This document shows positions 3,064 through 63,333 of a DNA stretch of 64,000 nucleotides, in pieces. The position numbers and the translations under genes are program-made. The stretch comes from Eledone cirrhosa (Eukaryota). Where the stretch lies: assembly GCA_964016885.1 (NCBI GenBank), contig OZ024741.1:140492001-140556000 (forward strand). The letters run 5' to 3'. Below the pieces are notes generated by a model. It saw only the letters and a program-made list of their open reading frames with translations, did not search any database and was not told where the DNA came from. Every line of letters begins with the position of its first letter. Within the stretch, counting starts at the first letter, position 1.

Positions 3064-3395
3064 TTATATTAATTTGTATTGTGTATACATATATATATAA
3101 ATATATATGCGTGTGTATGCTGTTGTTCTTTGATTTTATAAAATTGCTAGAGCTAGTAAGAGAGAGAGTGAGAGATTGTGTGTGTGAGTATATGAAGAGA
3201 GAGGTACAGATTGAGAGACAGTGAGAAATACACACACGCACACACATACACACACACACACACATACACACACACACACATACACACACACACACACATA
3301 TACACAGGTGTTGGTACCATCTCATCAGATAATACAACTTTTGTATTTAATCTATAAAACAACAGGTCCATTTATTAATATTATTAATAAAGATA

Positions 3396-3780
3396 TAAAA
3401 AAGAAAATTTAACTCTACATGGCTGAATACAATATATTTAATCTGAGTTTTTCGAATATTAATAATAACATTCGATCCGTTTGCAATTTTGCAAACAAGC
3501 CTCAATTTTATAGCCATGTCAGGAGAATGAACCCTTCATTCTTGCTCTTATGTTGGCATGCGAACAGAACTGCAGACACTAATGTTCCTGGGTATCACCC
3601 TTCATCAGTACAGCTCTGACAGTTTGGCAGGTGAACAGTGAGCTGTACTGATGAAAGGTGATACCCAGAAACATTAGTGTCTGCAGTTCACTTCGCATGA
3701 CAGCATAAGAGCAAGAATGAAGTGTTCATTCTCCTGACATTTATTGTATTCAGCCATGTAGAGCGAAATTTTATTTTTTT
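3396..3780. mobile_element. Fold-back copy of hammerhead-bearing non-coding element (family A)
   Basis: Minus arm 3396-3616 and plus arm 3616-3780 each contain the hammerhead motif. The block is the reverse complement of 4336-4670. Confidence 0.8.
3640..3689 (+). ncRNA. Type I hammerhead ribozyme motif (family A)
   Basis: gagctgta-CTGATGA-aaggtgataccca-GAAA-cattagt-GTC-tgcagttc: stem I, both cores and a GUC triplet are present. Confidence 0.75.
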
Positions 3781-3789
3781 TATCTATAT

Positions 3790-4012
3790 ATCAATAATAT
3801 TAATAAATGGAAACTATCTTTATAAAACCATATTTATTTTATTATATATATTTCAAGTGTACCAACATTTTTGGTACACTCTCATCAGATAAAATACAAA
3901 GTTTGTTTTATTTGATGAGATGGTACCAAAACGTTTGGTACCCTTGAAATATATATCATAAAATAAATATGGCTTCATAAAGATAGTTTCCATTTATTAA
4001 TACTATTGATAT
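3790..4012. repeat. ~110 bp-arm palindrome made of two opposed PLE pseudo-LTR ends, each with a minimal hammerhead (family B)
   Basis: Minus 3837-3894 reads ttttat-CTGATGA-gagtgtaccaa..ttggtacactt-GAAA-tatatata-ataaaa. Plus 3906-3963 is the same motif with TTGATGA. Homologous to 54235-54345, 56225-56344 and 16587-16695. Confidence 0.8.
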
Positions 4013-4095
4013 TATACGCCAGAAGAACTGTAGAGTGCTTCGAATCTGTTATAAATAAATTTAAATTATATATATATATGTTTTAACATATATTG

Positions 4096-4331
4096 ATTTC
4101 TAAGATTTCAACGCAGAGATTACATATACTTATACATACATGATAGAAAGTGAACATGGGGCGCAGAAAACTTTCTCATCTAAATCCCAACGCATGGCAG
4201 CAGAGGCACAACGACAAAGAGAGACGAGGGCAAATCAATTAAACAAAAATCGCTCTACAACATCCCAACAAATTTCTACAAATATAATTCAGTTAACACA
4301 CCAATAAAAACTTGCAACAAATACACCAATC
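4096..4331 (+). repeat. Inverted duplicate of the Helitron 5' segment 1551-1787
   Basis: atttctaagatttcaacgcagaga...aaatacaccaatc is the diverged reverse complement of 1551-1787. Confidence 0.85.
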
Positions 4332-4375
4332 GTGAATGAACACTTCATTCTTCCTCTTATGTTGGCATGCGAACA

Positions 4376-4425
4376 GAACTGCAGACACTAATGTTTCTGG
4401 GTGTCACCCTTCATCAGTACAGCTC
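4376..4425 (-). ncRNA. Type I hammerhead ribozyme motif (family A)
   Basis: Reverse complement reads gagctgta-CTGATGA-agggtgacaccca-GAAA-cattagt-GTC-tgcagttc. Confidence 0.78.
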
Positions 4426-4732
4426 ACTGTTCACCTGCCAAACTGTCAGAGCTCTGACTGATGAAGGGTGATACCCAGGAACATTAGTGTCTGCAGTTCT
4501 ATTCGAATGCCAACATAAAAGCAAGAATGAAGTGTTCATTCTACTGACATGGCTATAAAATTGAGACTTGTTTCGAAAATTGCAAATGAATCGAATGTTA
4601 TTATTAATATTCGAAAATCTCAGATTACATTTATTGTATTCAGCCATGTAGAGTTAAATTTTCTTTTTTATTTGAATTTGGCAAAGCCGGCCATTCATCG
4701 TTCGTATACAGGAAGCTGAATGGCCAGTCTGC

Positions 4733-4812
4733 TAATATGCAAATTTGGCTGATCATGGATCTACTAATATGCAGATCTCACTGATCAGCCAGTCTGCTAA
4801 TATGCAGATCAG
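4733..4812 (+). promoter_or_regulatory. Three tandem octamer/octamer-like boxes (ATGCAAAT, ATGCAGAT x2) upstream of a hammerhead
   Basis: ctaatATGCAAATttggctg (4737), ctaatATGCAGATctcactg (4769) and ctaatATGCAGATcaggccg (4802), spaced ~32 bp. Function is inferred only. Confidence 0.45.
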
Positions 4813-4886
4813 GCCGATCAGTCACTGTGTATTTTTGAAAATATCATATATTTTCACAAGCCCTGACAGTTTGGCAGGTGAACAGT

Positions 4887-4936
4887 GAACTGTACTGATG
4901 AAGGGTGTTACCCAGAAACATTAGTGTCTGCAGTTC
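4887..4936 (+). ncRNA. Type I hammerhead ribozyme motif, best family A copy
   Basis: Stem I gaactgta/tgcagttc (8 bp with one GU), CTGATGA 4895-4901, stem II gggt-gtt-accc, GAAA 4915-4918, stem III acat/gtgt, GTC 4926-4928. Confidence 0.85.
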
Positions 4937-5065
4937 TGTTCGCATGCCAAGATAAGAGAAAGGATGAAGTGTTTATTCTCGTGACATGGCTATAAAATTG
5001 ATACTTGTTTGCAAAATTGCAAACGAATCGAATGTTATTATTAATATTCGAAAACCTCAGGTTAC

Positions 5066-5116
<51 letters not shown>

Positions 5117-25539: not shown

Positions 25540-28500
25540 GGAGTAAATAGGGACCTTTTTTTTACATTGACGGACATCTTTTATATATATTATTGTGTCT
25601 TTTTTTGACAATTGCTCGAAATGAATACTGATAATAAAAGCAATTCGACTTTATCAAACAGTAAACTACAGCGGCGACGGCGTGCAGCCAGCAATGAAGA
25701 AAAACGGGCCGAACAGCGCCATCGGAGCGCGCAACTTCAGAGGCGAAGACGTGCCGCCATGAATGAAGAGGAGCTGGCTGAACAACGCCAACGAAACACT
25801 GGAGCCATGTAGCGACGGCATGCTGCGATGTTTAAAGACGAACTGGCTGATCATCATCAGCAGATGGCTAGAATTCAGCAGCAATGGTGTGCTGCGATGG
25901 ATGAAGAGGAGCTGGCTTATCAGCGCCAGCGCAATACAGAAGTTCAGAGGATGTATCGCCAAAGTGCTCCTCATTCCAGTAAAGAGGCTAGAAGGTGAAC
26001 GGATGATATTAAAAATGGATCATGGCAACCGTGTCATTTTCAGATTGGTGGACGAGCAGAGTGTCCACATTGTGGAGCATTGCTTTGTAGGCACGAAAAA
26101 ACGTGGACCACAATGTGCTGTCATAAAAGAGCAGTTCAACTAGAACCCTTGCGAATACCGGATGACGAGGAATCACCTGTGTTTAAAATACTAAGTATGT
26201 GGCGTGATCAAGGAGACCGAGGTAGAGTACTGCGCAAATATTCGCGGCAAATTAACAATTCATTAGCTTTAGTATCGCAGAGAGTTAGTGAGATGTTTGA
26301 GAGTGGAGCATGGCAACCGAATGTAGTCATTCAAGGCCGTTTGTATCATTGGGTCGGTAATTTAGAAGTTACCCCAGGAGAGAGGCCTCGATTCGCTCAA
26401 ATTTACGTTAACGATCCAGATTATAGTGAATCGGAGGAGGATATCAGGATCGGTTGGATGAAGTTGCCGGGAAATATAACTGAACTTGAACGGCAAAGGT
26501 TAAGTGATTTGATCCGTGATTTGCAATCATGGCTTAGACAGTGTAATCCTTATGCTATGGATTCCATGTTGGTGGCTGAACTGCAAAATGTTCAGCAGCA
26601 AACATTCGTGATTAAGGCTGACGCAGAGCCAAGGAATAAACACAAACGGTGATATAATGCCCCTGGAGGATTTCGTGAAGTTGCTGTGTTGATGGACGAT
26701 AAGCCTGGATCGAGAAATATCGTCCTCAATCGCAGAGGTGGTCTCAAGACTATCAATGAGTCAAATAGGGCATACGATCTATTGCATTATGTTCTTTTAT
26801 TCCCAAAAGGTTAAAATGTTCATTTAGATGATCATGAGAATCAGCATCAACAGGGAGGCGGCAATAGACACAACAATTCGATTCCCGACTTTTACGCGTT
26901 CCATTTGAACAAGAGGAATCAACAGAGAAATGCGCTATTTCAAGCCAGCATATTGTTCCAGGAATATTGTTGTATGGCATACGCAAAGATCGAAAATCAA
27001 AGGCTAAATTATATAGCAACATATCAGAGCTGAATTGTATAATAATATACAGGATTCGATAACAGCCGATGATGCCAATTACAAGCAAATTGGTCGACGC
27101 ATCATTTTGCCATCGTCGTTCATCGGCGGCCCGAGATATATGAACATTCCCTATCAGGATGCCATGACTATTGTCAGAAAGTTTGGAAAGCCAGAATTGT
27201 TTATAACGGTTACATGCAATCCTGAATGGACTGATATTAAGGATGCACTTTTGCCAGGACAACAGCCACAGGACCGTCCTGATATTGTGGCAAGAGTATT
27301 CAAAGGATATCTGAAAAAGATAATGGATGATGTGGAAAAAGTGGGAATATTTGGGGGTATAGTTGCTTTTACATACGTAATTGAATTTTCAAAAAAGAGG
27401 ATTGCTACATGCACATTTGCTGATCAATTTACATAGAGATTGCAAATTGAGATGTGCTGAGGATGTTGACAGCATTGTGTGTTCTGAACTGCTGGAGAAT
27501 GAGGCACTACGCAACTTGGTGGCACAGTCAATGGTGCACAACCAATGCGGAGTGGCAAATCGGAAAGCGCCTTGCATGGAAAATGGCCAATGCAGTAAGC
27601 ACTTTCCGAAATCTTTTGTCACGAATACTTCCTGGAACGATGGGGATGCTCATCCCTCATATAGAAGACGGTCGCCTGCAGATGGTGGATTGATAGAAAA
27701 TGTAAACGGTCGACACGTTACAAATCAATGGGTTGTGCCATATAATCCATATTTGATTATGAAATATCGTTGTCATATTAATGTGGAAATTTGTAGCTCA
27801 GTGAAAGCTTGCAAATATCTATTCAAATATGTTTACAAAGGTCATGATCGGGCAATGATGAATGTCAGGAACGAGGAAGCGAACCAAGGAGATGATGTGG
27901 CAGGTTCCAGGATGTTCGCTCGATTGGATCTAGCGAAGCTTGCTGGAGATTGTTCGATTTTGATCCCAATGAACGCAGACCCACCGTTCAGAAATTGACG
28001 GTTCACTTAGAGAATAGGCAAATGGTGTTTTCAGGACACTAGCAGAGGTGTCGAAAGAATTGCTAACGCACCACCTCCTAAGGCGGAATTGACTGAGTGG
28101 TTCAAGCATAATAGGGAACATGCTTTGAACCCGGATCAAAGGCAGCTCTACTACGATTTCCCTTCGCACTATTCGTGGGATAAGAAGGGAAAGAAATGGA
28201 ATGATAGAAAACAAAAGTTGAGATTCATGACTATTGGACGGGTTTGTAATGTCCATCCAGCATCTGGTGATGTATTGTATCTCCGAATTCTGTTGCATAA
28301 TGAATTTTCGAGAAGTAAACAGAGCTTCGCTGATTTGAAAACAATCGATGGCGTGGAATATGAAACATACCAGGCTGTGTGTCAGCATCTGGGACTCCTT
28401 CAGGATGACGGTGAGTGGAATAACGCCATGAAAGCTGCAGGAACAACACAGATGCCAGCTCAAATAAGGCAGTTGTTTGTCACGATTCTAGGATTCTGCC

Positions 28501-30060
28501 ATCCTGCCGATCCAAGAGAATTATTTGAACGCCATTGAGGAATTATGGCTGATGATTTTAGGCATCATCTTCAGGTCGATGATGAAAATTTGATGAAAGC
28601 TATTGTTTTGCTCAATATTGAGCAACTGTTTGAAGTTCATTTCAAATGTTTAAGAGATTTTAATTTGCCAATTCCTGATGAAGAAATGCAGCAACGTGTC
28701 TTAGCATTGAACATGAGATTGCAGCTTAGATGGTTGCCACTCGATCAGAGGGAACTATTCCAGTTTGATCCACTAGAAAAGCAACGTATTGTGGATGAAC
28801 ATATGCCAATGTTGACCCAATCTCAAAGAGAATTGGTCGATGGCGTTCTCCACACGATTTCCACTCATGAGCAGCTTTGTGCTTTTATAGATGCTCCAGA
28901 AGGCACCGGAAAGACATTCTGTTTCAACACTATGTTATCGGCACTCAGAGCTCAGAGGAGGATTGCTCTCCCTGTGGCCACCAGTGGGCTGGCTGCCACT
29001 TTGCTGAGTGGTGATAATCAGACTGTAAGAATCCCAGACCATTTGGTCATACCACTGGACCGTCAAGCATTGATTGACTGGCTGTTCCCTAATTTGAATG
29101 CTTTTTGGCAGAATATCTCCTGGATATCGGAACGCGTTATTCTAACTCATACGAATGCAACGGTCGATGAAATAAATTCACACGTAGCCGGAATGTTTCC
29201 TGGAGAGAAATGGTTGACCGTCAGTGCGGATGCAATGGAACCTAATCAGGAGAACAATATGGATGTTCCGACTGAGGATCTGAATTCACTTCAAATACCC
29301 GATTTCCCGCACATATTTTGAGGTTGAAAAAGGGTATGCCGATTATATTGCTTAGAAATATCAATCATAAAATGGGTCTTTGCAATGGTACCAGATTGAT
29401 TGTTGAGAGATTGATTAATGGAGGAGTTTTAGAAACTAAACTCCCAGGCAGAGAGGAATCGCTTCTCATTCCGAGGATCAGGCTGAGACTAAGTGAAGAT
29501 CTGCTGCCATTCATTTGGCAAAGGAGACAGTTTCCCATCAATTTGGCCTTCTTCATGACTGTCAACAAGGCACAGGGACAGCATTTTAAGCGAGTCGGTG
29601 TGTACTTGAATGATCCACCATTCAGCATTGGGCAACTGTATCTTGCTGCATCTCGAGTGTGCGATCCAGATGGTATAAAAGTTGCAATTGATACCACTAA
29701 CAGAGGAACAACCCTGAATATTGTCTATAATGAAGCTTTGAGCTGATGTATGCATATCTTTAATGCTATCAATAAGCGACGTAAATGATTCGGACATTGG
29801 TGTCCTTTGATCAGTATTGTGAGCTTTGACAGAGTTATCATTTATGTTCAATGTCATTTAATGTAGTTATGAGCAATACAAATAAACAAGTATTGGTAAA
29901 AATTGCTTTCACTGCTATGTTGCGCAATAAATACCCACAAGTATTGGTAGAAATTGCCTTCAAATTTATCGCTTCTGATTGCGGTGGTAATAAAACCTCA
30001 TCATATGCTGAGTCTGGCAAAACGTTTGGTGCCTATGGCCAACCAGGGCTAGAGTAGTAT
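25540..30060 (+). mobile_element. Helitron (autonomous-type, decayed)
   Basis: Contains the Rep/Hel pseudogene. A possible 3' hairpin gcctatgg..ccagggc with a GTAG-t end lies at ~30030-30058. The 5' end is uncertain. Confidence 0.85.
25621..29746 (+). pseudogene. Helitron Rep/Helicase (HUH Rep plus PIF1-like helicase), frameshifted, with an internal deletion
   Basis: Charged N-terminal repeats, CxxC..CC, IQGRLYHWVG..PRFAQIY, RIILPSSFIGGPRYM, Rep motifs FITVTCNPEW, EF/QKRGLLHAH and KYLFKYVYKG, Walker A DAPEGTGKT, ATSGLAATLL, IILLRN..GLCNGTRL, RRQFP..AFFMTVNKAQGQ and GQLYLAASRV. Confidence 0.95.
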
Positions 30061-30339
30061 TGAAAAACGGTTCTATTTTCGAAATAGAAGGATCCGCCAT
30101 TTGGAGTTCAAACCAGGCCACCTCCCCGAGATGAACTCTGGGCAATATTGACTCAGTGGCTAAGAGCCTGGAAATTACTGAATAAATTTCTGTGTCATAT
30201 AATTTGTTGTCTTATTATTATAGTTGACCACTTATAGATACGCATGTTATCCATATCCATATTAATTTGGCATTTGTATAAACCATTTCAAGTAAATAGG
30301 GACCTTTTTTACATTGTCGGGCATCTTTTATATTAATTA

Positions 30340-30698: not shown

Positions 30699-30721
30699 TA
30701 TATATATATATATATATATAC

Positions 30722-30891
30722 ATTATGAAGAGAGAAGAAACATTTAGATATAATTAGTAATAAAATGTATCATACCTAAACTGCTCCTATTCATTAAGCA
30801 ACATCGGTGAAGTTGGCACCCTTAACTCACAGTTGCGTGCGGATGCATTCATGTATATATGTGTGTGTGTCCGCATGTATCTGTGTGTTTC

Positions 30892-30895
<4 letters not shown>
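30722..30895. repeat. Truncated, internally inverted copy of the 49410-50183 element
   Basis: 30722-30788 matches 50002-50068 directly. 30789-30895 is the reverse complement of ~49842-49943. Confidence 0.8.
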
Positions 30896-30967
<72 letters not shown>

Positions 30968-31437: not shown

Positions 31438-31511
<74 letters not shown>

Positions 31512-31534
31512 CATTATAATAAATATATATATAT

Positions 31535-32155
31535 AGCATTATAATAAATGTTCGGTAAACCGATACGTGCATATATATATATATTTATGTGTGCATGTAT
31601 GTATATATATACATACTACTGTACGTCTGTATACATATATGTATGTACGTATACATACATACTTACATTTAAGTAAGTGCCGTACTAAGAGTGAGAAATG
31701 AAATTTCGTTTCATTCTATTCCATTTATCGTTTTCGGTGTGCCCGGCCGACTGAACTCACTCGATATGCAAATTAGGCTGCTCAGCCGTTAATATGCATA
31801 AGGAAAGTATATACTTTCAGACGTTTAACCATCTGGCAAGCTGACGATAGATAATAAGCTTGAAACTAGTACATCGTTCCTGTGTCACTGTTGAACAAAA
31901 AGGTGACGTGGTTGCCTAAACACTGTACTGCGTAATTGGGGCTGTTTGTTTGTTTACAAACAAACAAACCGAGCATTATAATAAATGTTCGGTAAACCGA
32001 TACGTGCATATATATATATATGCGTGCATGTATGTATATATATACATACTACTTTACGCCTGTATACATATATGTATGTACGTATACATACATACTTACA
32101 TTTAAGTAAGTGACGTACTAAGAATGAGAAATGAAATTTCGTTTCATTCTATTCT
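31535..32155 (+). mobile_element. Retrozyme-like non-coding element, ~1.4 tandem units (~437 bp period), family C
   Basis: ~185 bp direct repeats at 31535-31722 and 31972-32153. The interior has an octamer at 31766-31773, the hairpin aaagtatatacttt, and CTGACGA(31841)..GAAACTAGTA(31862-31871) with poor stems. It is embedded in (TA)n. Confidence 0.65.
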
Positions 32156-32180
32156 ATATATATATATATATATATATTCT

Positions 32181-46000: not shown

Positions 46001-48615
46001 TATAAACGTTTGGAGTTGGAAGGCCAAGACAATGCAGGTATGGATATAGAATATAAATGCAAATGCAAAAGATATTGTGGACAATTACTCTTTTACCTTA
46101 AATTTATTTAAATATCCTTAATTTTCGAGATAATATCTCTTCTTTGGATAAAAGTAAATGGGTTAATCCAGTGTTCTAATTAGCTTGCCAAGTCATGCTG
46201 ACAGGAAATGATATAGAGATTCCATTCTATCTTCTAATATCAAAGAGTGAAGGTTAGGTGGATAAAGAGTTGTCTCCCTTTAAAAGCGGTTTTGTACATG
46301 TATGTTTAAGTGTGTGGGAGAATACGTGAAGGCGTAAGTATGCGTGCGTGTGTGTGAGTGTGAGAAGATATGTCTATATGTAAATGTGGGGGTTAGATGC
46401 TCTATCATGTTAAGACTATTCTTTGTGTGTGTATGTATGTGTGTGTGTGAGAGAATAAGTGGATGTGTATGCGTGTGTGTGTGTGATGTGTGTGCGTGTG
46501 AGTGTGTGTGTGAGAGGGTGTAATAAGTGTGGGGCTAGGTGCTCTATCATGTTAAAAATTGGGTGTTGAGTTCTAGTCTATTATTGATTGGTGGTTGTGT
46601 TTTATCTATAATCAGTACTTCCTTAATTCTAAGATTGCCGAGGTCACTTTCTTTAGTTTCTATCCTAACTGTTATGATTTTGTCGGTGTTTTTGCATTTC
46701 ACTAGGTGTTTCTTAGTATTGAGGTGTTCTTTTATTCTTATGTGAAGTGGTCTGGTGGTACTACCTACGTAGAAATTGCTGCATTTGTCGCACTCTAATC
46801 TGTATACGATGTAAGCCTGGTGGCATAGGTCTGTGTCGTAGGTGGGGCAGTTGGCTAGCCTGCAGCGGCTGTCATGTCTGGTGGAGTGTCTTTTGGTTAG
46901 CCGTCTACACTACATTCCCCGCTCATCCAATGTCGTTGTATTGACGGACTGCGTGATTGCAGAGAACATCCACTGCTACGGCCTCCATCCGACGGACATA
47001 CACCAGCTTTTGTCCTTGACAGAGGACAACACGTACTTCACCTTCCACCACCACACATACAGACAGACAACAGGATTACGCATGGGATCCAGCTTAACGG
47101 GCCTGCTGGCCATCACCTAAATGAACCAGCTAGAATGCCGAGCCCTCAACACCTGTCATTCCCATACCTTCTTCATCTGATATGTAGATGACATACTCAT
47201 CCTTACCTCATCCCGTGAGGAAGCGGATAAAATAAACACGACATTCTTCAGCATGGACGCCAGTATAATGTTCAGCATGGAACACCCCGATGACCGCGGA
47301 TCCCTATCCCTATTGGATACACAGGGTAACAGAGGAAGGCAACATCCACACCTTCTTCTATAAAAAAAAGCCGCCAGCATGGATCTGTTCGTACATTTCA
47401 GATCGGCCTTCCCAGCCAGCGCTTAGTTCGGATACATAAGGAACGAACTACACGTATCCAGAACAAATGCACCGACGCAAGAGACCGAGACACACACACC
47501 ACACATTTCCTGGAAGTACTTAAACTGAACGGATACCCGACGTCCACCGCGAAACGTGCCAGAAATAACTGAGGACACAACACCTGCTTCCTGAAGCTCC
47601 CACACTTCAGTGACGAAACAACAACAGACATCCGCAGACCTATCAGACGAGAGGGACTAGATATCCAACTAGCCCACTCAGGACCTTCTCTACGCGGACA
47701 GCTAACCAACAGACACACCACCAGACATGAAAGCCGCTGCAGGCTAGCCAACTGCCCCATCAACGACACACACATATGCCACCAGGCTTACGTCGTCTAC
47801 AGATTAGAGTGCGACAAATGCGGCAATTTCTACGTAGGTAGCACCACAAGACCACTTCACATAGGAATAAAAGAACACCTAAATACTAAAGCTTCCTCCT
47901 TTAAGAAACACCTAGTGAAATGCAAAAACACCTACAAAACATATCCGTTAGGATAGAAACAAAGGAAAGAAATCTCGGCAATCTTAGAATTAAGCAAGCA
48001 CTGATTATAGACAAAACACAACCAACAATCAATAATAGATTAGAACGCAACACCCAATTTTTAACATGATAGAACCCCTAGCCCCACACTTATTACACCC
48101 TCTCACACACACACTCACACGCACACACATCACACACACACACGCTTACACATCCACTTATTCTCTCTCACATACACACACACATACACACACAAAGACC
48201 AGTCTTAACATGATAGAGCATCTAACCCCCACATTTACATATAGACATATCTTCTCGCACTGACACACACACACACGCACGCATACCTACGCCTTCACGT
48301 ATTCTCCCACACACTTAAACATACATGTACAAAACCCCTTTTAAAGCAAGACAACTCTTTATCCACCTAACCTTCACTCTTTGACATTAGAGATAGCATG
48401 GAATCTCTATACCATTTCCTGTCAGCATGACTTGGCAAGCTAATTAGAACACTGGATTAACCCATTTACTTTTATCCGAAGAAGAGATATTATCTCGAAA
48501 ATTAAGGATATTTATATACATTTAAGGTAAAAGACTAATTGTCAACAATATCGTTTGCATTTGCATTTATATTCTATATCCATACCTGCATTGTCTTGGC
48601 CTTCCAACTCCAAAC

Positions 48616-48622
<7 letters not shown>
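46001..48622 (+). mobile_element. Penelope-like element, 5'-truncated with an inverted 3' copy
   Basis: RT remnants NTYFTFHHHTYRQTTGLRMGSSL and YVDDILIL (47030-47210), GIY-YIG VVYRLECDKCGNFYVGSTTRPLHIGIKEH (47790-47880). Arms 46001-46905 and 47697-48622 are reverse complements. Confidence 0.9.
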
Positions 48623-49284: not shown

Positions 49285-49340
49285 ACTGCCTGATGAGGTC
49301 ATAGCCATTTAATGGCTATCATCGAAATATATGTAGCAGT
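49285..49340 (+). ncRNA. Minimal type I hammerhead ribozyme motif
   Basis: actgc-CTGATGA-ggtcatagccat-tta-atggctatcatc-GAAA-tatat-GTA-gcagt, with a perfect 5 bp stem I and a long stem II. Confidence 0.82.
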
Positions 49341-49409
49341 AAATAAGGGATTATGAGTTCATGCAATTGACTTATGTTTCATCACTATATATACACACAC
49401 ACACATATA

Positions 49410-50181
49410 TTATGAAGAGAGAAGAAACATTTAGATATAATTAGTAATAAAATGTATCATACCTAAACTGCTCCTAGATTCCTCGACTACGTAGTTTCGT
49501 GGCATAAACAAAAACAATACATCATAAAGATATAGAGTCCTTGCGAGGTCTGCCGACTTATCAAGAGGATACCTCATTTTACTAGCTTCAAGAACGCGTC
49601 TACACGACGTGAGAAAGAATCTCAAAAGGCGGAGTGGGAGATAGTCACGCGATATAACGGTCGAGAAACAGAGCTAATCCTCTTATAACCCCGAAGAAAA
49701 TACCACGGAGGCGGAGGGGGTATTTATATCGAAGCCGTAGAAGAGGTGGTGAAGGAGGCGAGAAGTATGAGTAATGGCAGCTTTCCAGCAGTCACCACAC
49801 TTCAAAGATTACTCGACCAGAGGGAGTTATGAACAATATATTTAGAAACACACAGATACATGCGGACACACACATATACATGAATGCATCCACACCCAAC
49901 CGTGAGTTAATGGTGCCAACCTTACCGATGTTGCTCAATGAATGACTGGGACAGACCAATCCGGTTGAATTAGACTGAACCAGTATCAGAGTTAAAAATA
50001 CATTATGAAGAGAGAAGAAACATTTAGATATAATTAGTAATAAAATGTATCATACCTAAACTGCTCCTAGATTCCTCGACTACGTAGTTTCGTGGCATAA
50101 ACAAAAACAATACGTCTTAAAGATATAGAGTCCTTGCCAGGTCTGCCGACTTATCAAGAGGATACCTCATTTTACTAGCTT

Positions 50182-50183
<2 letters not shown>
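49410..50183 (-). mobile_element. Non-coding element with ~180 bp direct repeats (period 593 bp) and a degenerate hammerhead-like 3' half
   Basis: Repeats at 49410-49590 and 50003-50183. The minus strand reads GAAACTACGTAGTC-gagga, but the 5' core is (a)tgatgt / aagacgt. It is flanked by TA/CA repeats. Confidence 0.65.
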
Positions 50184-50243
<60 letters not shown>

Positions 50244-52380: not shown

Positions 52381-52866
52381 CAAAATACAATCCAAGTCAA
52401 TGAAAAACATCTTAACACATGCCAAAGTACTGCCACAACCACAACAACGATACCCAGAGTAAAAAAATGCGATACACCCAACTGTGGCATTTGCATCAAC
52501 CTAATAGAGGGTTCGGAATTCTATTTCAAAGATGGACAACGTTTTATAGTAAAACACAATTTCACATGTGCATCGAAAAATCTAATATATGTATTAACTT
52601 GTTCAGGTTGTCGAGAACAATACATAGGCCAGACCAAAAACAGCCTCCGCCAACGCATGACTGTCCATAGATCCCAATTCAAAATACGGGAATACAGGAA
52701 AATAACACTGAGTGAACACATTGATACCTGTGCCGCCCAAAATCATCCCAACTTCAGAATCTTTCCCCTCTACAAGTTTAAAGATAATGCCACCCACACC
52801 CAGCGCATCAGCAAGGAATCTTACTTCATTAACAAATACGGACCCCGTCTAAACACTTCTCCCTAA
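52381..52866 (+). mobile_element. Neptune-type Penelope-like 3' fragment (Cys linker plus GIY-YIG endonuclease)
   Basis: Open frame KCDTPNCGICINL..FTCASKNLIYVLTCSGCREQYIGQTKNSLRQRMTVH..LSEHIDTC..RISKESYFINKYGPRLN*. It begins directly after (TA)n. Confidence 0.88.
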
Positions 52867-54234: not shown

Positions 54235-56344
54235 TTCAATGATATTAAATAAATGGAAACTATATTTATAAAACCATATTTATTCTATTATATATATTTC
54301 AAGGGTACCTAAAATGTTGGTACGCTATCATCAGATAAAATACAAAATGTTTCGTAAATATTTGACATGACCAAGGACCTTAACGGTTCAAGTTATCCCT
54401 GGAAAGTGGAGGGAAGAGAGAAGAAAAGTCAGATATTTCAAATTATCAATATGAGTATGCAAATGATGTGTATATTAAATGGCTGAAAAAAATTTATTTT
54501 AGACGCTATGGAAAATTTAAATATTTATGATACATAAAAACATAGTTTACAAATGTACAGTTAAAACTGGTGATAATATATTCAACTATGTCGGTGCCAC
54601 TTCTACAGAATTTAAACTTCGCTGGAATAACCACAATTGTTGTTTTAGAAGATCTGACAAAAAATATTCTACTACCCTCTCACATCTTATATGGAACTTT
54701 AAAAGCAGGAATATAGACTATACACTATCTTGGAAAACGATTTCGAAAGCACATGCTTACCGAAACACGGCCTTATGTAGATTATGTAAATTATTTATTG
54801 AAGAAATTTTTTATATAATTAATTGTAAAAACTTTATTAACCTTATAACAGAAATATTTAGTTGTTGCAGACATCGCCAAAATTCTACATTCAGAACTAT
54901 ATGTAACTTATAATATACTTATAATATTCCTATTAATCTCCAAAATGATCTTATCTGCTCTAACATTTTATATTTGTAATGCTTTTAATATATTAATATC
55001 TCTAAATCATATCTTTAACATTTCTTATAATATATATATACGTGTGTATGTATAGATATTTATATATGTTTATGTACTTCTACATTATATACTTCTATAT
55101 AATTATAATTTTAATTTTAATTTTAATTTTAATTTAAATTCTTTTAAATTCTTTAATTCTTTTTTCTTAATTTTTTATTTTTCTAATGACAACCTCTAAA
55201 GCTAAATTTTAAATATAGATTAATAACCATTAACTGTTTTTACTAAAATGTATCCTATTCAGGATGATGTTTAAATATTCATATTTCTTTAGAATAAATA
55301 ATTAATCCTACACTAGCGATTAATAAAAAAAATTGGAGTTATCTTTCCTTCTTTCAATCATAAACACTTTTTATACATAACTGCGTTAATTCAACCTTAT
55401 AAATTGTAACTACCTATTTATTTACATAAAATCAACATCCCTAGTGACTTATATTAGGAACAAACACCCATATATATTTTATTTATTTATAAATCAACAT
55501 CCCTCGAAACTCATATTATAAACAAACTATCCTTTTAATAAAAAAAACACATATGCTTTTATAAAAATATATATATAGATATTTGATATTTATATATTAT
55601 TATAATAGGGTAAATAATTCTCCATATAAATATAGACAAATGTCTGAATATATTTTCCCTAAATTAACGTTCAAGTGGTCTTCCTTTCCTCCTTCTTTAA
55701 CAATTTTAGTTTGATATAGTTTCGTTAAATTAACAATATTCTGCAAACATTCTCAGTGTTGAAAATGTTTGTATCCACAAATTATTCTAATTTTCACAAC
55801 TTGAAAATAAAATGTTTAACATCCTTCGTAACTCATATTTGTTTATATAAACAATCAATGCATACGCAACTTATTAATATATACAGAGATATTAATATAC
55901 AGATAACCTATCCTAATTTAATAAGATAAAAATACTTACAACCATAATTCTTCATATAATTTTATAACTCATAATATAGGTAACAAAAATCTTTTCCCCC
56001 CAAATTAACGTTATTCTTTTATCTTTCTCTTCCTTCCTTATCATAATTATTTAAATATTCCATAGCGTCTAAAATAACGTTTTTTCAGCCCTTCAATATG
56101 CACATCATTTGCATACTGATATTAATAATTTGAAATATCTGACTTTTCTTCTCTCTTCCCTTCACTTTAGGGGGATAACTTGAACCGTTAAGGTATATTA
56201 TCCTTGGCCATGTCGAATATTTATAAAATATTTTGTATTGTATCTGATGATAGCGTACGAAAATGTTTGGTACCCTTGAAATATATATTAATAGAATAAA
56301 TATGGATTTATAAATATAGTTTCCATTTATTCAATATCATTGAA
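54235..56344 (+). mobile_element. Naiad-type Penelope-like 3' fragment with inverted pseudo-LTRs carrying hammerheads (family B)
   Basis: GIY-YIG ORF 54527-54913 (NIVYKCTV..YVGATSTEFKLRWNNH..STTLSHLIW..CRLCKL..CCRH). Arms 54235-54530 and 56039-56344 are inverted. CTGATGA occurs at 56244 (plus) and 54328-54334 (minus), each followed by GAAATATATAT. Confidence 0.88.
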
Positions 56345-56583: not shown

Positions 56584-56909
<326 letters not shown>

Positions 56910-57366: not shown

Positions 57367-57506
57367 GTATATATATATGTAGGAGGTGAGTTTTATTGTA
57401 GTACAATAAAGCAAGGCAGATATCGGATAAGAAGCACTCTACACTTTGTAGGACTGGAGTATATATAATATATAAGAACAAAAGATGGTTAAAAGAGTTC
57501 CATGTA

Positions 57507-57573
57507 TTTTATTATGCGCATTTCAAAAACAAATATCATCATGCAATAACATTTGTGTTTTCATCAGATAAAA
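57507..57573 (-). ncRNA. Minimal type I hammerhead motif in PLE pseudo-LTR
   Basis: Reverse complement of 62125-62191. Confidence 0.78.
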
Positions 57574-57939
57574 CAGGAAGACATGATATGAAGGTTAAAA
57601 AACACTTGTGGATAGTGCAGTTTTAAATCAACATATGAAAAGTAGTTTTAGATTGATGTGTGATATTTGGAAAAAAAAAATTATTTTGGGGGTGGGGGGT
57701 CGAAAGGATAAAAAAGAGGAGGAGATGAGAGTAAAAAGTGGAGAGGGAGGAGTATAATGAGGAAGGATGAGATAGGAGGAAAGATGGCTGATAGATAGAG
57801 AGAGATAGCTTTTATTACTGAGAAAGATATATTGTTTTACATAGAGAGGTTGAAAACCGTTGGAAGATAATGTATAAATTAAAAGAATTTGAAAATTAAC
57901 GAAGAGAAAAATAATGTAAAGTTAAGGTTTGTATATTGA

Positions 57940-58110
57940 AGGGTTTAATAATATGTGCGACGAAAAGAAAATGTTAATATGTATTAAGAATAATATTTAA
58001 GGGTTTAATAATATGTGCGATGGAAAGAAAAAGTGAATATGTATTAAGAATAATATTTAAGGGTTTAATAATATGTGCGATGGAAAGAAAATGTTGATAT
58101 GTATTATTAA
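57940..58110. repeat. ~60 bp minisatellite x3 in the PLE 3' UTR (mirrored at ~61590-61760)
   Basis: Units of aagggtttaataatatgtgcga(c/t)g(a/g)aaagaaaa.gt.aatatgtattaagaataatattt. Confidence 0.85.
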
Positions 58111-61100
58111 AAAGAACAACATGTAATTTAAGTAAGGATATATTGTGGGATGAGCATGAATGAGTTAGATGAAAGGGAGAAAGAATAATGAATTGAGGAT
58201 GAATAATCTAACGTCAAAAAAATGTTTATGTTTACGAAGGATTTTTAGAAGGTGATATAGAGTAAGAATGTATTGTATTATGTAATAATTGATTCTATGT
58301 TAGGCAACAGTGAGAAAAGGTACATATTAGGGGTTATACATTAAAAGAAAAAGAGAAGAAAGGGAAGTGATAAATAGGAGCGATATAGAATGGTTAACAA
58401 GTATTATAGAATGAGTAACAAGTATTATATAATGTATAATAAAAACTTTGAAATAAGGTAGAAAGATGGGTATATTTTTAAAGAAGTGTATATATATATA
58501 TGCCTTTGAGAAAAAGATTCTAAATTGATAAGGTTTTTGGATATTAGCTGTATACTTTGTGGAATGTTTTGTGGAATTTATGCAAGCAGATAGAAAACAA
58601 GTCAGTGCGTCTATTTATTATATCTAAATTAGATATAATGGTAAATTTTTCATTTAGACAGAGATTGCAAATCTTGGATAGAGAACTGTTCAAGTATGGA
58701 GACGCAGAAGAAACCTTCTTCCAAAAGATGCTATATTTAATATTTTTGTCTTTCAAGGACCATATGAGTTCTGAAAGAGCTGTGTTGGTGCTTTTAAGTT
58801 TGTATTTAAAAGACGAATGATGGTTATAAAGACGAGCTTTAAAGGAGGTGGAAGTGGAGCCAAAATAGGTGAAGCAATTGGTGTCAGTTATAACTTTACA
58901 TTCGTAAATTAAGTTTTTATCAAGACAATGGTTGTTGAGAGGACATTTATTTTTGACAGGGCAACTGCAATTGCGATTAGAGAGATTATTAATGAGTGAC
59001 CTAGTGTTATCTATAGAAGGAATTGGATTGTTGAAGTTATTTGCGATAGGAATAATAGTTTCTTGATTTAGAATGGGATTAAGAACATTTAGCGAAGTTG
59101 TGTTTGACGTTGTATTTGGGTTTGCAGAAATTAGCCTAGGGTTTACAATGACGTCGGGAGTACTATTACTATTATTATGATATTCAGTTTTGGAAGGAAG
59201 AGATTTAGTATTTAGTATTTTATTGTTGTGTTTAGAGATAATGTTGGAAAGGTTGGAGGTTGTAGAATAAGAAAATGTTATAGTGTGTTTGTTAAATATT
59301 TTACTATAGATATGTGAGGGAGGGAAGCATTTATTTAAGGCACTAAAGAATAATTTAGGAATATTACTATTAATAGAGATGGAGAAAGGAGCATTATACC
59401 AGATTATTTTTTTGTATCTAGGTCTTTTATTAAAGTTATTGGAATGATCATGATTAATTATTCTACTGTAAGATCTTCTAGAATGTGTTTCTTTACTATA
59501 TTTGATTTTATCAGGATTGCCGGCTTTAGAAAGCGCGTTATTATAGTAATTGGCGTTAGCATCAAAGATCTTTTATTAGAAGAAAGGTTAGATATTCTTT
59601 TTCCAATATTACTAACTATAGCATTCTTGATATTAGTAGGATCGTTAGATTTAAAATTAACATAATTTAGGTTCTCATTGTTTTTATGGTAAGGGTAATA
59701 TAGGCCAGTGTCAAGATTAAGAGATACATCCAGGAAATTAGCTAGTTTGATGATGTTACCAAATTCAATTTTTAGGTTATGTTGGGTAAAGAGATTACGT
59801 ATATTGTTCTTAATAATATTAAGGTTAACTATGTTGCAATTTAAGATAGTAAAGAGTCCATCGTCACGATAAATTCCACCGCGAAGTTGAGGAATTGTCC
59901 GACTCAAAGAGTTCAAAATAAAGATACCAATTAAATCTGTCAATTGGGATGAATCGGATGCTCCCATTGTGATGTCGAAGTTGTTAGAGGTATCGGCTAT
60001 TACCCTTACCACAAAAACAATGAGAACCTAAATTATGTTAATTTTAAATCTAACCATCCTACTAATATCAAGAATGCTATAGTTAGTAATATTGGAAAAA
60101 AATATCTAACCTATCTTCTAATAAAAACATCTTTCATGCTATCACCAATTATTATAATAACGCGCTTTCTAAAGCCGGCTATCCTGATAAAATCAAATAT
60201 AGTAAAGAAACACATTCTAGAAGATCTTACAGTAGAATAATTAATCATGATCATTCCAATAACTTTAATAAAAGACCTAGATACAAAAACATAATCTGGT
60301 ATAATGCTCCTTTCTCCATATCTATTAATAATAATATTCCTAAATTATTCTTTAGTGCCTTAAATAAATGCTTCCCTCCCTCACATATCTATAGTAAAAT
60401 ATTTAACAAACACACTATAAAATTTTCTTATTCTACATCCTGCAACATTTCCAACATTATCTCTAAACACAACAATAAAATACTAAATACTAAATCTCTT
60501 CCTTCCAACACTGAATATCATAATAATAGTAATAGTACTCCCGACGTCATTGTAAACCCTAGGCTAATTTCTGCAAACCCAAATACAACGTCAAACACAA
60601 CTTCGCTAAATGTTCTTAATCCCATTCTAAATCAAGAAACTATTATTCCTATCGCAAATAACTTCAACAATCCAATTCCTTCTATAGATAACACTAGGTC
60701 ACTCATTAATAATCTCTCTAATCGCAATTGCAATTGCCCTGTCAAAAATAAATGTCCTCTCAACAACCATTGTCTTGATAAAAACTTAATTTACGAATGT
60801 AAAGTTATAACAGACACCAATTCCTTCACCTATTTTGGCTCCACTTCCACCTCCTTTAAAGCTTGTCTTTATAACCATCATTCGTCTTTTAAATACAAAC
60901 TTAAAAGAACCAACACAGCTCTCTCAGAACTCATATGGTCCTTGAAAGACAAAAATATTAAATATACCACCTTTTGGAAGAAGGTTTCTTCTGCGTCTCC
61001 ATACTTGAACAGTTCTCTATCCAAGATTTGCAATCTCTGTCTAAATGAAAAATTTACTATTATATCTAATTTAGATTCTATAATAAATAGACGCACTGAC

Positions 61101-62124
61101 TTGTTTTCTATCTGCTTGCATAAATTCCACAAAACATTCCACAAAGTATACAGCTAATATCCAAAACCTTATCAATTTAGAATCTTTTTCTCAAAGGCAT
61201 ATATATATACACTTCTTTAAAAATATACCCATTTTTCTACCTTATTTCAAAGTGTTTATTATACATTATATAATACTTGTTACTCATTCTATAATACTTG
61301 TTACCCATTCTATATCGCTCCTATTTATCACTTCCCTTTCTTCTCTTTTTCTTTTAACGTCTAACCCCTAATCTGTACCTTTTCTCACTGTTGCCTGACA
61401 TAGAATCAATTATTACATAATACAATACATTCTTACTCTATATCACCTTCTAAAAATCCTTCGTAAACTTAAACATTTTTTGACGTTAGATTATTCATCC
61501 TCAATTCATTATTCTTTACTCCCTTTCATCTAACTCATTCATGGTCATCCCACAATATATCCTTACTTAAATTACCTGTTGTTCTTTTTAATAATACATA
61601 TCAACATTTTCCTTCCATCGCACATATTATTAAACCCTTAAATATTATTCTTAATACATATTAACTTTTTCTTTCCATCACACATATTATTAAACCCTTA
61701 AATATTATTCTTAATACATATTAACATTTTCTTTTCATCGCACATATTATTAAACCCTTCAATATACAAACCTTAACTTTACATTATTTTTCTCTTCGTT
61801 AATTTTCAAATTCTTTTAATTCATACGTTATCTTCCAACGGTTTTCAACCTCTTTATGTAAAACAATATATCTTTCTCAGTTATAAGAGCTACCTCTCTC
61901 TCTCTATCAGCCATCTCTCCTCCTATCTCATCCTTCCTCATTATACTCCTCCCTCTCCACATTTTACTCTCATCTCCTCCTCTTTTTCATCCTTTCCACC
62001 CCCCACCCCTCAAAATAAATTTTTTTTTCAAATATCACACATCAATCTAAAACTACTTTTCATATGTTGATTTAAAACTGCACTATCCACAAGTGTTTTT
62101 TAACCTTCATATCATGTCTTCCTG

Positions 62125-62191
62125 TTTTATCTGATGAAAACACAAATGTTATTGCATGATGATATTTGTTTTTGAAATGCGCATAATAAAA
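62125..62191 (+). ncRNA. Minimal type I hammerhead motif in PLE pseudo-LTR
   Basis: ttttat-CTGATGA(62131)-aaacacaaatgttatt-gcat-gatgatatttgttttt-GAAA(62174)-tgcgc-ATA-ataaaa, with palindromic tgcgca in stem III. Confidence 0.8.
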
Positions 62192-62223
62192 TACATGGAA
62201 CTCTTTTAAACATCTTTTGGTCT

Positions 62224-62252
<29 letters not shown>

Positions 62253-62254
<2 letters not shown>

Positions 62255-62917
62255 AAAACAAATAACGAAACGAAATTAAATTTCGCTTCGTTTGTAACTC
62301 ACTTTTGTATGACTGACGCTTAAACAATTAAGTTAAAAATGTACATCCACATATGTATACTGAAATATTAGTATGCATATAAATACACACACGTGTACAT
62401 ATGTAGATGTACCGAGTTTTTCACTGGTCACCTTACTGTGAGTGTTCAGCTATTCTGTATGTAAACACACAGACAAACCAGTTTTTAGAGTCATACTGGT
62501 TTTAATTTCGTTTCGTTATTTGTTTTTATCGTCTCCGCTGAACCGGTACGTACTCACGCTCTATGCAAATTAGTCTGCCCACTACTAATTTTCATAGAAA
62601 AAGCATATAACGATATGTGCTTTTACGATTCTCTAGAAAGGCCGGAATAGGTAAATATTGCTGATGAGATGTAACAACATCGAAACTAGTCCAATGTTCC
62701 TGTCTGGCTTTCTGGAGAATAGAGGAAAGTTGGTTCCTCGAAAACCAGTATGACTCTAAAAAACGGTTTGTCTGTGTGTTTACATACAGAATAGCTGAAC
62801 ACTCACAGTAAAGTGTCCAGTGAAAAACTTGGTACATCTACATATGTACACGTGTGTGTATTCATATGCATACTAATATTTCAGTATACATATGGGGATG
62901 TACATTTTTAACTTAAT

Positions 62918-62920
<3 letters not shown>
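62253..62920 (+). mobile_element. Retrozyme-like non-coding element (family C), A'..B'-A-core-B layout
   Basis: 62253-62281 is the reverse complement of ~62501-62529, and 62323-62502 is the reverse complement of 62742-62918. The core has an octamer at 62563-62570, a hairpin and a hammerhead. It is TA-flanked on both sides. Confidence 0.75.
62655..62697 (+). ncRNA. Minimal type I hammerhead ribozyme motif
   Basis: atattg-CTGATGA-gatgt-aaca-acatc-GAAA-cta-GTC-caatgt: perfect 5 bp stem II, palindromic actagt stem III and a GUC triplet. Confidence 0.87.
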
Positions 62921-62962
<42 letters not shown>

Positions 62963-62996: not shown

Positions 62997-63333
62997 ATAT
63001 TGTTATACTTTGGGAGGGTCATGTTGCCAATAAGAAACAGACGCACCAGTTGTGTGTGGTGACACAACACACACACAGAAACAAGATGGCGTACGACAGA
63101 CCAAAGGAGAGGCAAAAAAACAAAGAAAAGAATCCCGTCACAGAAGAGATGACATAATGTGTGACGAAAGAACTGTGACAGTATAGAAACAACCATCTGG
63201 TTGTGGAACCAACCAACCAACCGGAAATTTATAAATTCCTAAATTTATAAATGTATTATAATAAATTGAAGTTAAATACCTGGCGCGTGTGTTTCTTATT
63301 TGCAACATGACCCTCCCAAAGTATAACAATATC
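62997..63333. repeat. Element with ~55 bp terminal inverted repeats
   Basis: atattgttatactttgggagggtcatgttgc.aataagaaaca..ccag and its reverse complement at 63279-63333. Confidence 0.75.

Follow-up and report, generated by a model that had tools for sequence, protein, structure and literature searches.

The retrozyme class, and the hypothesis that Penelope-like elements (PLEs) are its helpers, are already published (Cervera and de la Peña 2020, PMC7229834; Li, Clavereau and Pollet 2026, 10.64898/2026.07.22.740005); both papers propose that retrozymes are non-autonomous PLEs. The closest described systems are HHR_Amex1/Rtz_331 of the axolotl and satellite 2 of the newt. As portrayed in PMC7229834, these are short, low-GC units that carry a type I hammerhead and no ORF; helix III of the hammerhead is weak and closed by a tetraloop that is palindromic, and the hammerheads are predicted to act as dimers. 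The retrozymes of that paper measure 150–450 bp, pair strongly with themselves, form arrays, and share their genomes with PLEs. In the account of Li et al., retrozyme consensus lengths run from 51 to 972 bp, solo monomers are derivatives of their families, and the link to PLEs is drawn from co-occurrence and pLTR homology, mainly in vertebrates. PLE insertions, according to Craig et al. (2021, PMC8557442), are 5'-truncated and partly tandem, often have an inverted truncated copy beside them, and carry a one-sided tail of 30–40 bp; PLEs of the Hydra clade insert into (TA)n.

The copy described here lies at 62252–62918 of a 64-kb stretch of DNA (the 'window'), which is AT-rich and laden with microsatellites, contains GIY-YIG and Pif1 helicase remnants and many inverted repeats, and is likely of animal origin. 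Most probably the copy is a solo one, of a 463-nt hammerhead unit that is non-coding and present in many copies. The unit is likely an animal non-LTR retrozyme, and a borrowed PLE enzyme probably reverse-transcribed it into (TA)n. With the axolotl and newt elements (PMC7229834) it has in common a short, low-GC unit, a type I hammerhead that has a weak helix III with a palindromic cap and is predicted to act as a dimer, the lack of an ORF, strong self-pairing, and PLEs in the same genome; its length is slightly above the range of those retrozymes. Whereas they form arrays, this copy is a dispersed head-to-head 1.4-mer with one hammerhead, and the word 'inverted' occurs 0 times in the main text of that paper. 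The proposed helper is the same as that of Li et al., as is the occurrence of solo derivatives, but the link to PLEs comes here from the structure of the insertion, and no pLTR homology was found in the window. Endonuclease-positive PLEs of the Hydra clade and non-autonomous Chlamys elements (e.g. MRC1), as described in PMC8557442, are alike in their 5' truncation, partial tandems, inverted truncated copy, unequal ends, (TA)n targets, and hammerhead upstream of the 3' end. Unlike them, the copy has no ORF, has an extra 3' segment of 74 nt, and does not match the putatively Hydra-like PLE next door.

The 463-nt unit and its two arms

Self-alignment resolves the copy into four blocks (A, L, B and C), with A-L-B reversed in the left arm and B-C-A in forward orientation in the right. 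The left arm, on the reverse strand, ends beside a (TA)n tract (62231–62251) that it has in common with the 3' end of the neighbouring PLE. Its U-rich 3' end is a copy of B (62252–62280), identical at 29 of 29 positions to 62501–62529. This is joined to L (62281–62325), a 45-nt linker that connects A to B in the unit, and whose end is predicted by folding to pair with B as a hairpin, and then to a copy of A (62326–62503), in which the arm is 5'-truncated and which is identical to 62741–62918 at 171 of 178 positions (seven mismatches). The right arm, on the forward strand, starts with B (62501–62529) and continues through C (62530–62740) to A (62741–62918), which adjoins the right (TA)n tract (62919–62938). 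The two arms are ~96% alike, and overlap at the head-to-head junction in a TTT microhomology (62501–62503). As to target duplication, which in animal non-LTR retrozymes exceeds 4 bp where it occurs, both flanks are (TA)n. The original prediction had placed B, a linker of ~40 bp and the start of A in the left, inverted block; B and the linker are there, but A is present whole. Just right of the TA tract, 62997–63332 is bounded by 53-bp terminal inverted repeats and is likely a MITE.

The A-L, L-B, B-C and C-A junctions close head-to-tail, and the monomer rebuilt from the four blocks is 463 nt long (36% GC), in agreement with the periodicity of ~460 nt that had been proposed. The longest stop-free frame in the doubled unit is 81 aa, and the ORF for RT plus GIY-YIG that lies between the repeats of an autonomous PLE is absent. 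The unit is never joined to a PLE ORF in the window copies, and its earlier description as retrozyme-like, with no attached ORF, is upheld.

The unit is also highly structured. With 30 shuffles each, the z-score is –9.3 for its circular fold, and –1.3 and 0.2 for the folds of two flanks. The unit is a chain of hairpins, and its opposite strand is almost as stable when folded (–125 versus –147 kcal/mol). A chain of this kind, in a window rich in inverted repeats, would also suit satellite or foldback DNA that had spread by DNA-level recombination, in which case the hammerhead would be vestigial and the inversion a later DNA rearrangement. Against such an origin, which we consider highly improbable, stand the dispersal of copies among TA tracts, the variation in their 5' starts, the recurrence of a U-rich 3' end, and the compensatory changes in the hammerhead.

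The hammerhead and its relatives

The type I hammerhead occupies 62640–62710 on the forward strand. Its core (62661–62691) comprises CUGAUGA (62661–62667), a 5-bp helix II (62668–62672 with 62677–62681), and GAAA (62682–62685), and cleavage is predicted to follow the GUC at 62689–62691, that is, to occur after 62691. Helix I is long (62655–62660 with 62692–62697, extending beyond a UAA bulge); helix III is a palindromic ACUAGU, weak but present. The hammerhead is among six matches to a strict type I descriptor within the 64-kb window, and it matches the Rfam model HH9 at 26.5 bits, short of the 52 bits set for gathering; E is 0.024 when 64 kb are searched, and 1.7e-4 for 451 nt. With E allowed up to 1, the Rfam search of the window gave 86 matches, of which almost all were to microRNA models on microsatellites.

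Minimal hammerheads of the PLE type lack helix III and tertiary contacts (PMC6155905). The hammerhead at 62661–62691 is of another kind, with a helix III, a long, bulged helix I, and a helix II of 5 bp. It had been called a textbook minimal hammerhead with GUC; the GUC and an intact core are indeed present, but 'minimal' is apt for helix III only. Judged by its sequence, it is closer to axolotl HHR_Amex1, described as a hammerhead that is poor at cleaving on its own but good at it as a dimer (PMC7229834), than to the minimal PLE form. Counting against the reading as a retrozyme, cleavage was seen in only one of nine dimers assayed by Li et al. (10.64898/2026.07.22.740005). Because it has a single hammerhead, the copy could not release a monomer alone; for the same reason it falls short of the two units that define an active retrozyme in that preprint, and counts as a solo derivative.

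Relatives of the unit were sought in four (X1, X8, X21 and X4) of 23 listed public sequencing runs; the shares of 0.06–0.17 recorded for organisms B–Q, X4 apart, play no part here. No RNA run is listed among the 23, which speaks neither for nor against expression. The stretch is matched by 1092 of the 16,517,967 contigs of X1, 28 of the 762,587 contigs of X8, 3456 of the 12,467,656 reads of X21, and 2 of the 18,844,494 contigs of X4. Single X1 contigs reach a depth of 1683, where rare ones have 13–39; the difference implies that near-identical copies number at least in the tens. Summed X1 depth is no copy number. With just two contigs in X4, at a depth of about 2, we do not claim presence in a second species. 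An X8 contig that spans the hammerhead has six substitutions (among the 40 differences listed, of 125). These exchange the helix II pair 62669/62680 from A-U to U-A, a compensatory change, and convert the cut site from GUC to GUU, with two further substitutions upstream. The sixth, G to A at 62696, converts a helix I G-U pair to A-U, and A is the majority letter there in X1, X8 and X21. On 62501–62797, one variant is dominant in X8 (depth 115–168 across the hammerhead), and has letters that are minor in X1 (62691 and 62572); X8, the run type of which is not on record, is possibly a transcriptome dominated by one subfamily.

The same runs bear on how the blocks adjoin. In a contig of X8, the start of A is continuous with the end of C, and the inversion is therefore specific to the 62252–62918 locus and not part of the unit. 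The direct L-B-C junction is present in one 307-nt contig of X4 (100 letters on the short side, depth 2.3), which may be trace DNA of organism A, and is bridged by no contig of X1 or X8. It also occurs in 36 of the 3456 X21 reads. X21 is a RAD library with chimeric loose ends at AATT sites, and the L-B-C joint, too, is at AATT; these reads may be ligation chimeras, and hence carry little weight. The loose ends themselves, at which 85% of the matching X21 sequence continues unlike the locus, were considered as many insertion sites; the main ones (62279, 62329, 62504 and 62571) coincide with AATT, and so are taken to be restriction or ligation artefacts. No array with two intact hammerheads of the 463-nt family was seen in contigs that are too short to show arrays, or at 62252–62918, which has one. 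Metagenome scans gave 0 matches to the hammerhead pattern. A sole match to the octamer pattern described below (L001) was rejected as chance, its similarity extending over 23 nt only.

With an intact type I core, a short, low-GC, head-to-tail unit, no coding capacity, and many genomic copies, the 463-nt family has several of the features expected of animal non-LTR retrozymes. Its members are likely to be such retrozymes, and are likely mobilised by PLEs.

Two other families are present in the window. The sister family (31535–32161, forward strand) is a direct 1.4-mer of a 437-nt unit, as had been surmised when it was described as a direct partial tandem. It has an octamer at 31766, a decayed hammerhead core at 31841–31871, and a 3' end within the homologue of B. 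Its proposed homology to the 463-nt unit extends from end to end of that unit (score 299, versus a mean of 78 and a maximum of 125 in 200 shuffles); for the core of the unit the score is 110, versus a maximum of 49 in 1000 shuffles. The first 15 bases of the sister are duplicated just upstream (31510–31549) with a short TA run between, possibly by an abortive template jump. The third family (3395–5069), newly recognised here, has a 437-nt unit with hammerhead cores at 4458 and 4895 and an octamer at 4737. It comprises two head-to-head insertions and five hammerhead copies, and includes two hammerhead units in tandem, one of them with a changed core. Its hammerhead is a different one, with a 3-bp helix III and no hammerhead match in Rfam, and it has three octamer-like words. 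Compared over the whole unit, the third family has no significant homology to the 463-nt unit, its score being equalled in 45 of 200 shuffles, and similarity to the sister is weak (82 versus a shuffle maximum of 76). A similar U-rich 3' end occurs in it twice, with about 40 nt between its two kinds of end. Two third-family 3' ends adjoin remnants that resemble the 3' end of the 54–56 kb PLE family.

Other ribozyme-like sequences are scattered through the window. Hammerheads of the 54–56 kb PLE family have a TA-palindromic helix III and occur also at 3888 and 16681. Two short cores with a palindromic helix III (ACAAUUGU) lie back to back on opposite strands at 56621–56693, a small inverted insertion of another family. 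Another type I hammerhead (49290–49335) is near a 187-bp direct repeat (49405–49591 and 49998–50184) that also matches 30699–30900, and at 30103–30171 an HDV-like ribozyme is weakly indicated by Rfam (31.2 bits, gathering score 44, E = 0.071).

Insertion and the probable connection to PLEs

The copy is adjacent to a coding PLE (57460–62238) that is not part of the 463-nt unit. This PLE has head-to-head, 5'-truncated arms, 97% alike, and contains the C-terminal part of the RT plus an endonuclease region. Its own, unrelated hammerhead, with an unusually long helix II, occurs at 62131–62185 and 57567–57513. A CxCX5C linker motif, described for PLEs of the Hydra clade (PMC8557442), suggests that it is Hydra-like, and the clade assignment depends on this one motif. 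Pfam gave nothing on its two ORF pieces; protein searches yielded 0 of 4336 candidates, and 1 of 1126 in a second search. The adjacent PLE is a candidate for the type of helper; a helper with a homologous end was not found within the 64-kb window, no PLE end of which has BLAST similarity to the unit at E 0.5. Our survey of the window revealed further PLE-like remnants at 46001–48622, 54235–56344 and 52381–52866, two of them head-to-head inversions. The head-to-head layout thus recurs in the adjacent PLE, at 46–48 kb, at 54–56 kb, and in the third hammerhead family. At 25999–29746 there is a frameshifted, Helitron-like Rep/Pif1 helicase remnant, with a match to the Pif1 2B domain.

PLE pLTRs carry type I hammerheads, and PLE insertions are truncated, partially tandem and inverted (PMC8557442). 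The 463-nt unit might accordingly be no more than a pLTR, the terminal repeat, from an autonomous PLE that lies outside the window, and its copies ordinary 5'-truncated insertions; the coding PLEs in the window show the same layout, and the sequence examined is 64 kb, not a whole genome. However, downstream of the 3' end the same non-coding unit is reached again 463 nt further on (437 nt for the sister and third families), without an intervening ORF, and contigs of X4 and X8 support L-B-C and C-A adjacency, respectively. We regard a pLTR as an improbable identity for the unit.

A retrozyme inserted by a PLE enzyme is the reading that we prefer. The copy displays the 5' truncation, partial tandem, adjacent inverted truncated copy and (TA)n target of PLE insertions, and a one-sided 3' extension of the left arm that is 74 nt long, versus the 30–40 bp of the PLE tail. 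The inverted read-through junction noted in the original prediction is real; it is not a special feature, but a published pattern of PLE insertion (PMC8557442), specific to this locus. In reactions with purified PLE, both strands of the target are cut and extended, synthesis starts internally at two sites, and the RNA used as template in vitro is mainly uncleaved (PMC11167929). Read-through of the cut site hence does not imply a ligated circle.

The following course of events would account for the copy. Transcripts would come from tandem source arrays, with the octamer/TATA-like block perhaps as the promoter; hammerheads would pair through the palindromic helix III and cut as dimers; and the monomers would perhaps circularise, as in coral, mussel and axolotl. 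A PLE protein would cut both strands of an AT-rich target, and each target 3' end would prime cDNA synthesis at an internal, U-rich site of an RNA longer than the unit: after B for the left arm, and after A for the right, at sites separated by 74 nt. The cDNAs, both of them 5'-truncated, would then anneal at TTT. At nine compared sites, the arms have three letters in common against the family majority, and differ at the other six, split three and three. The three uncommon letters point to one source lineage, followed by divergence.

On the unit, 5' starts occur at 62501, 62741, and the equivalent of about 62798; 3' ends occur at the equivalent of 62529 (left arm and sister), at 62918, and, in an X4 contig, at 62631. 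Varied 5' starts are expected from 5' truncation on any tandem template. The left-arm end (62252) and the sister end (32154–32161) fall at one homologous, U-rich site, and so are not random. Circular permutation had been put forward for these copies; the permuted ends were found, but the circle does not follow from them, for a linear tandem transcript explains them equally well. Whether a covalently closed circle of 463 nt served as template, and was copied round more than once, is a sub-question within the preferred reading, and to us such a circle is a possible but somewhat doubtful answer. Copy ends at several unit positions, the three uncommon letters of both arms, and the circles documented for coral, mussel and axolotl retrozymes speak for it. 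Against it, a linear multimer would give identical products, and the arms differ at 62816, and probably at 62863, where the family is divided, with a sizeable minority lacking the majority letter; this hints weakly at two template units. Moreover, the right arm starts within 29 nt of the left-arm end (chance ~0.13), and twin priming on a single template is not established.

The octamer block

The octamer ATGCAAAT, an octamer box as predicted, is at 62563–62570 on the forward strand, in the 5' arm of a predicted hairpin (~62560–62598), and is the best-conserved word among the three unit families. A TATA-like CATATA (62604–62609, forward strand), a candidate promoter element, follows 41 nt after the octamer start. 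TATGCAAATT is the sole 10-mer common to all three families, and its sub-words are the sole common 8-mers and 9-mers. Six 10-mers are common to the first two families; at least one of these turns up in 25 of the third family's 2000 shuffles. Of 137 unrelated window tiles, 3 contain one, in no case the octamer word. An octamer or octamer-like word stands 41, 42 or 43 nt before a YATATA hexamer, one spacing per family, where the spacing of the third family uses the last of its three octamer-like words, picked post hoc. A 20-nt pattern was derived from the three copies themselves, and its chance figure is set aside. The octamer is not significantly enriched in the window (13 found; mean 8.2, with 13 reached in 9 of 100 shuffles).

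In immunoglobulin promoters, the TATA box has an octamer ~40 nt upstream. In newt satellite 2, the promoter is reportedly an octamer plus a proximal sequence element that drives Pol II. This promoter is internal and of the snRNA type (Coats et al. 1994, as cited in PMC2220036). Satellite 2 and the 463-nt unit are alike as hammerhead repeats, the former with its own Pol II promoter; they are unlike in that the 463-nt unit has no proximal sequence element that we could identify, has its octamer followed by a TATA-like hexamer, and has a promoter that is only a candidate. The recurrent 3' end is also followed, 34–66 nt downstream, by the octamer block, and RNA ~55–60 nt beyond its start sites is required by the anole PLE (PMC11167929). 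The conserved block is accordingly a candidate for an internal promoter or, equally, for an RNA signal that loads the PLE enzyme.

In the literature searched, supplements and most subscription papers aside, we found no report of PLE-type inverted retrozyme copies, nor of a conserved octamer in invertebrate retrozymes; in one retrozyme paper, 'octamer' refers to viroid multimers. Both the enzyme behind the movement of animal retrozymes and the manner of their transcription are open questions. The link to PLEs has come from shared hammerheads, co-occurrence and pLTR similarity, to which the PLE insertion scar (divergent truncated arms, a microhomology junction, a TA target, and alternative 3' ends) adds further support. 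Copies that bear the scar supply the published in vitro assay of PLEs with natural substrates, and the octamer block is a concrete candidate for a promoter or loading signal. More speculatively, and in our opinion rather unlikely, retrozymes may be an old, self-transcribing lineage and not scraps of PLE ends, in which three families too diverged to have even their hammerheads in common have kept the octamer–TATA-like block just upstream of the ribozyme. The block would be a POU-driven internal promoter, as in newt satellite 2, or else a PLE loading signal just downstream of the preferred start. If this is true, self-transcription together with PLE-type inverted insertion would provide a full and testable life cycle for animal retrozymes.
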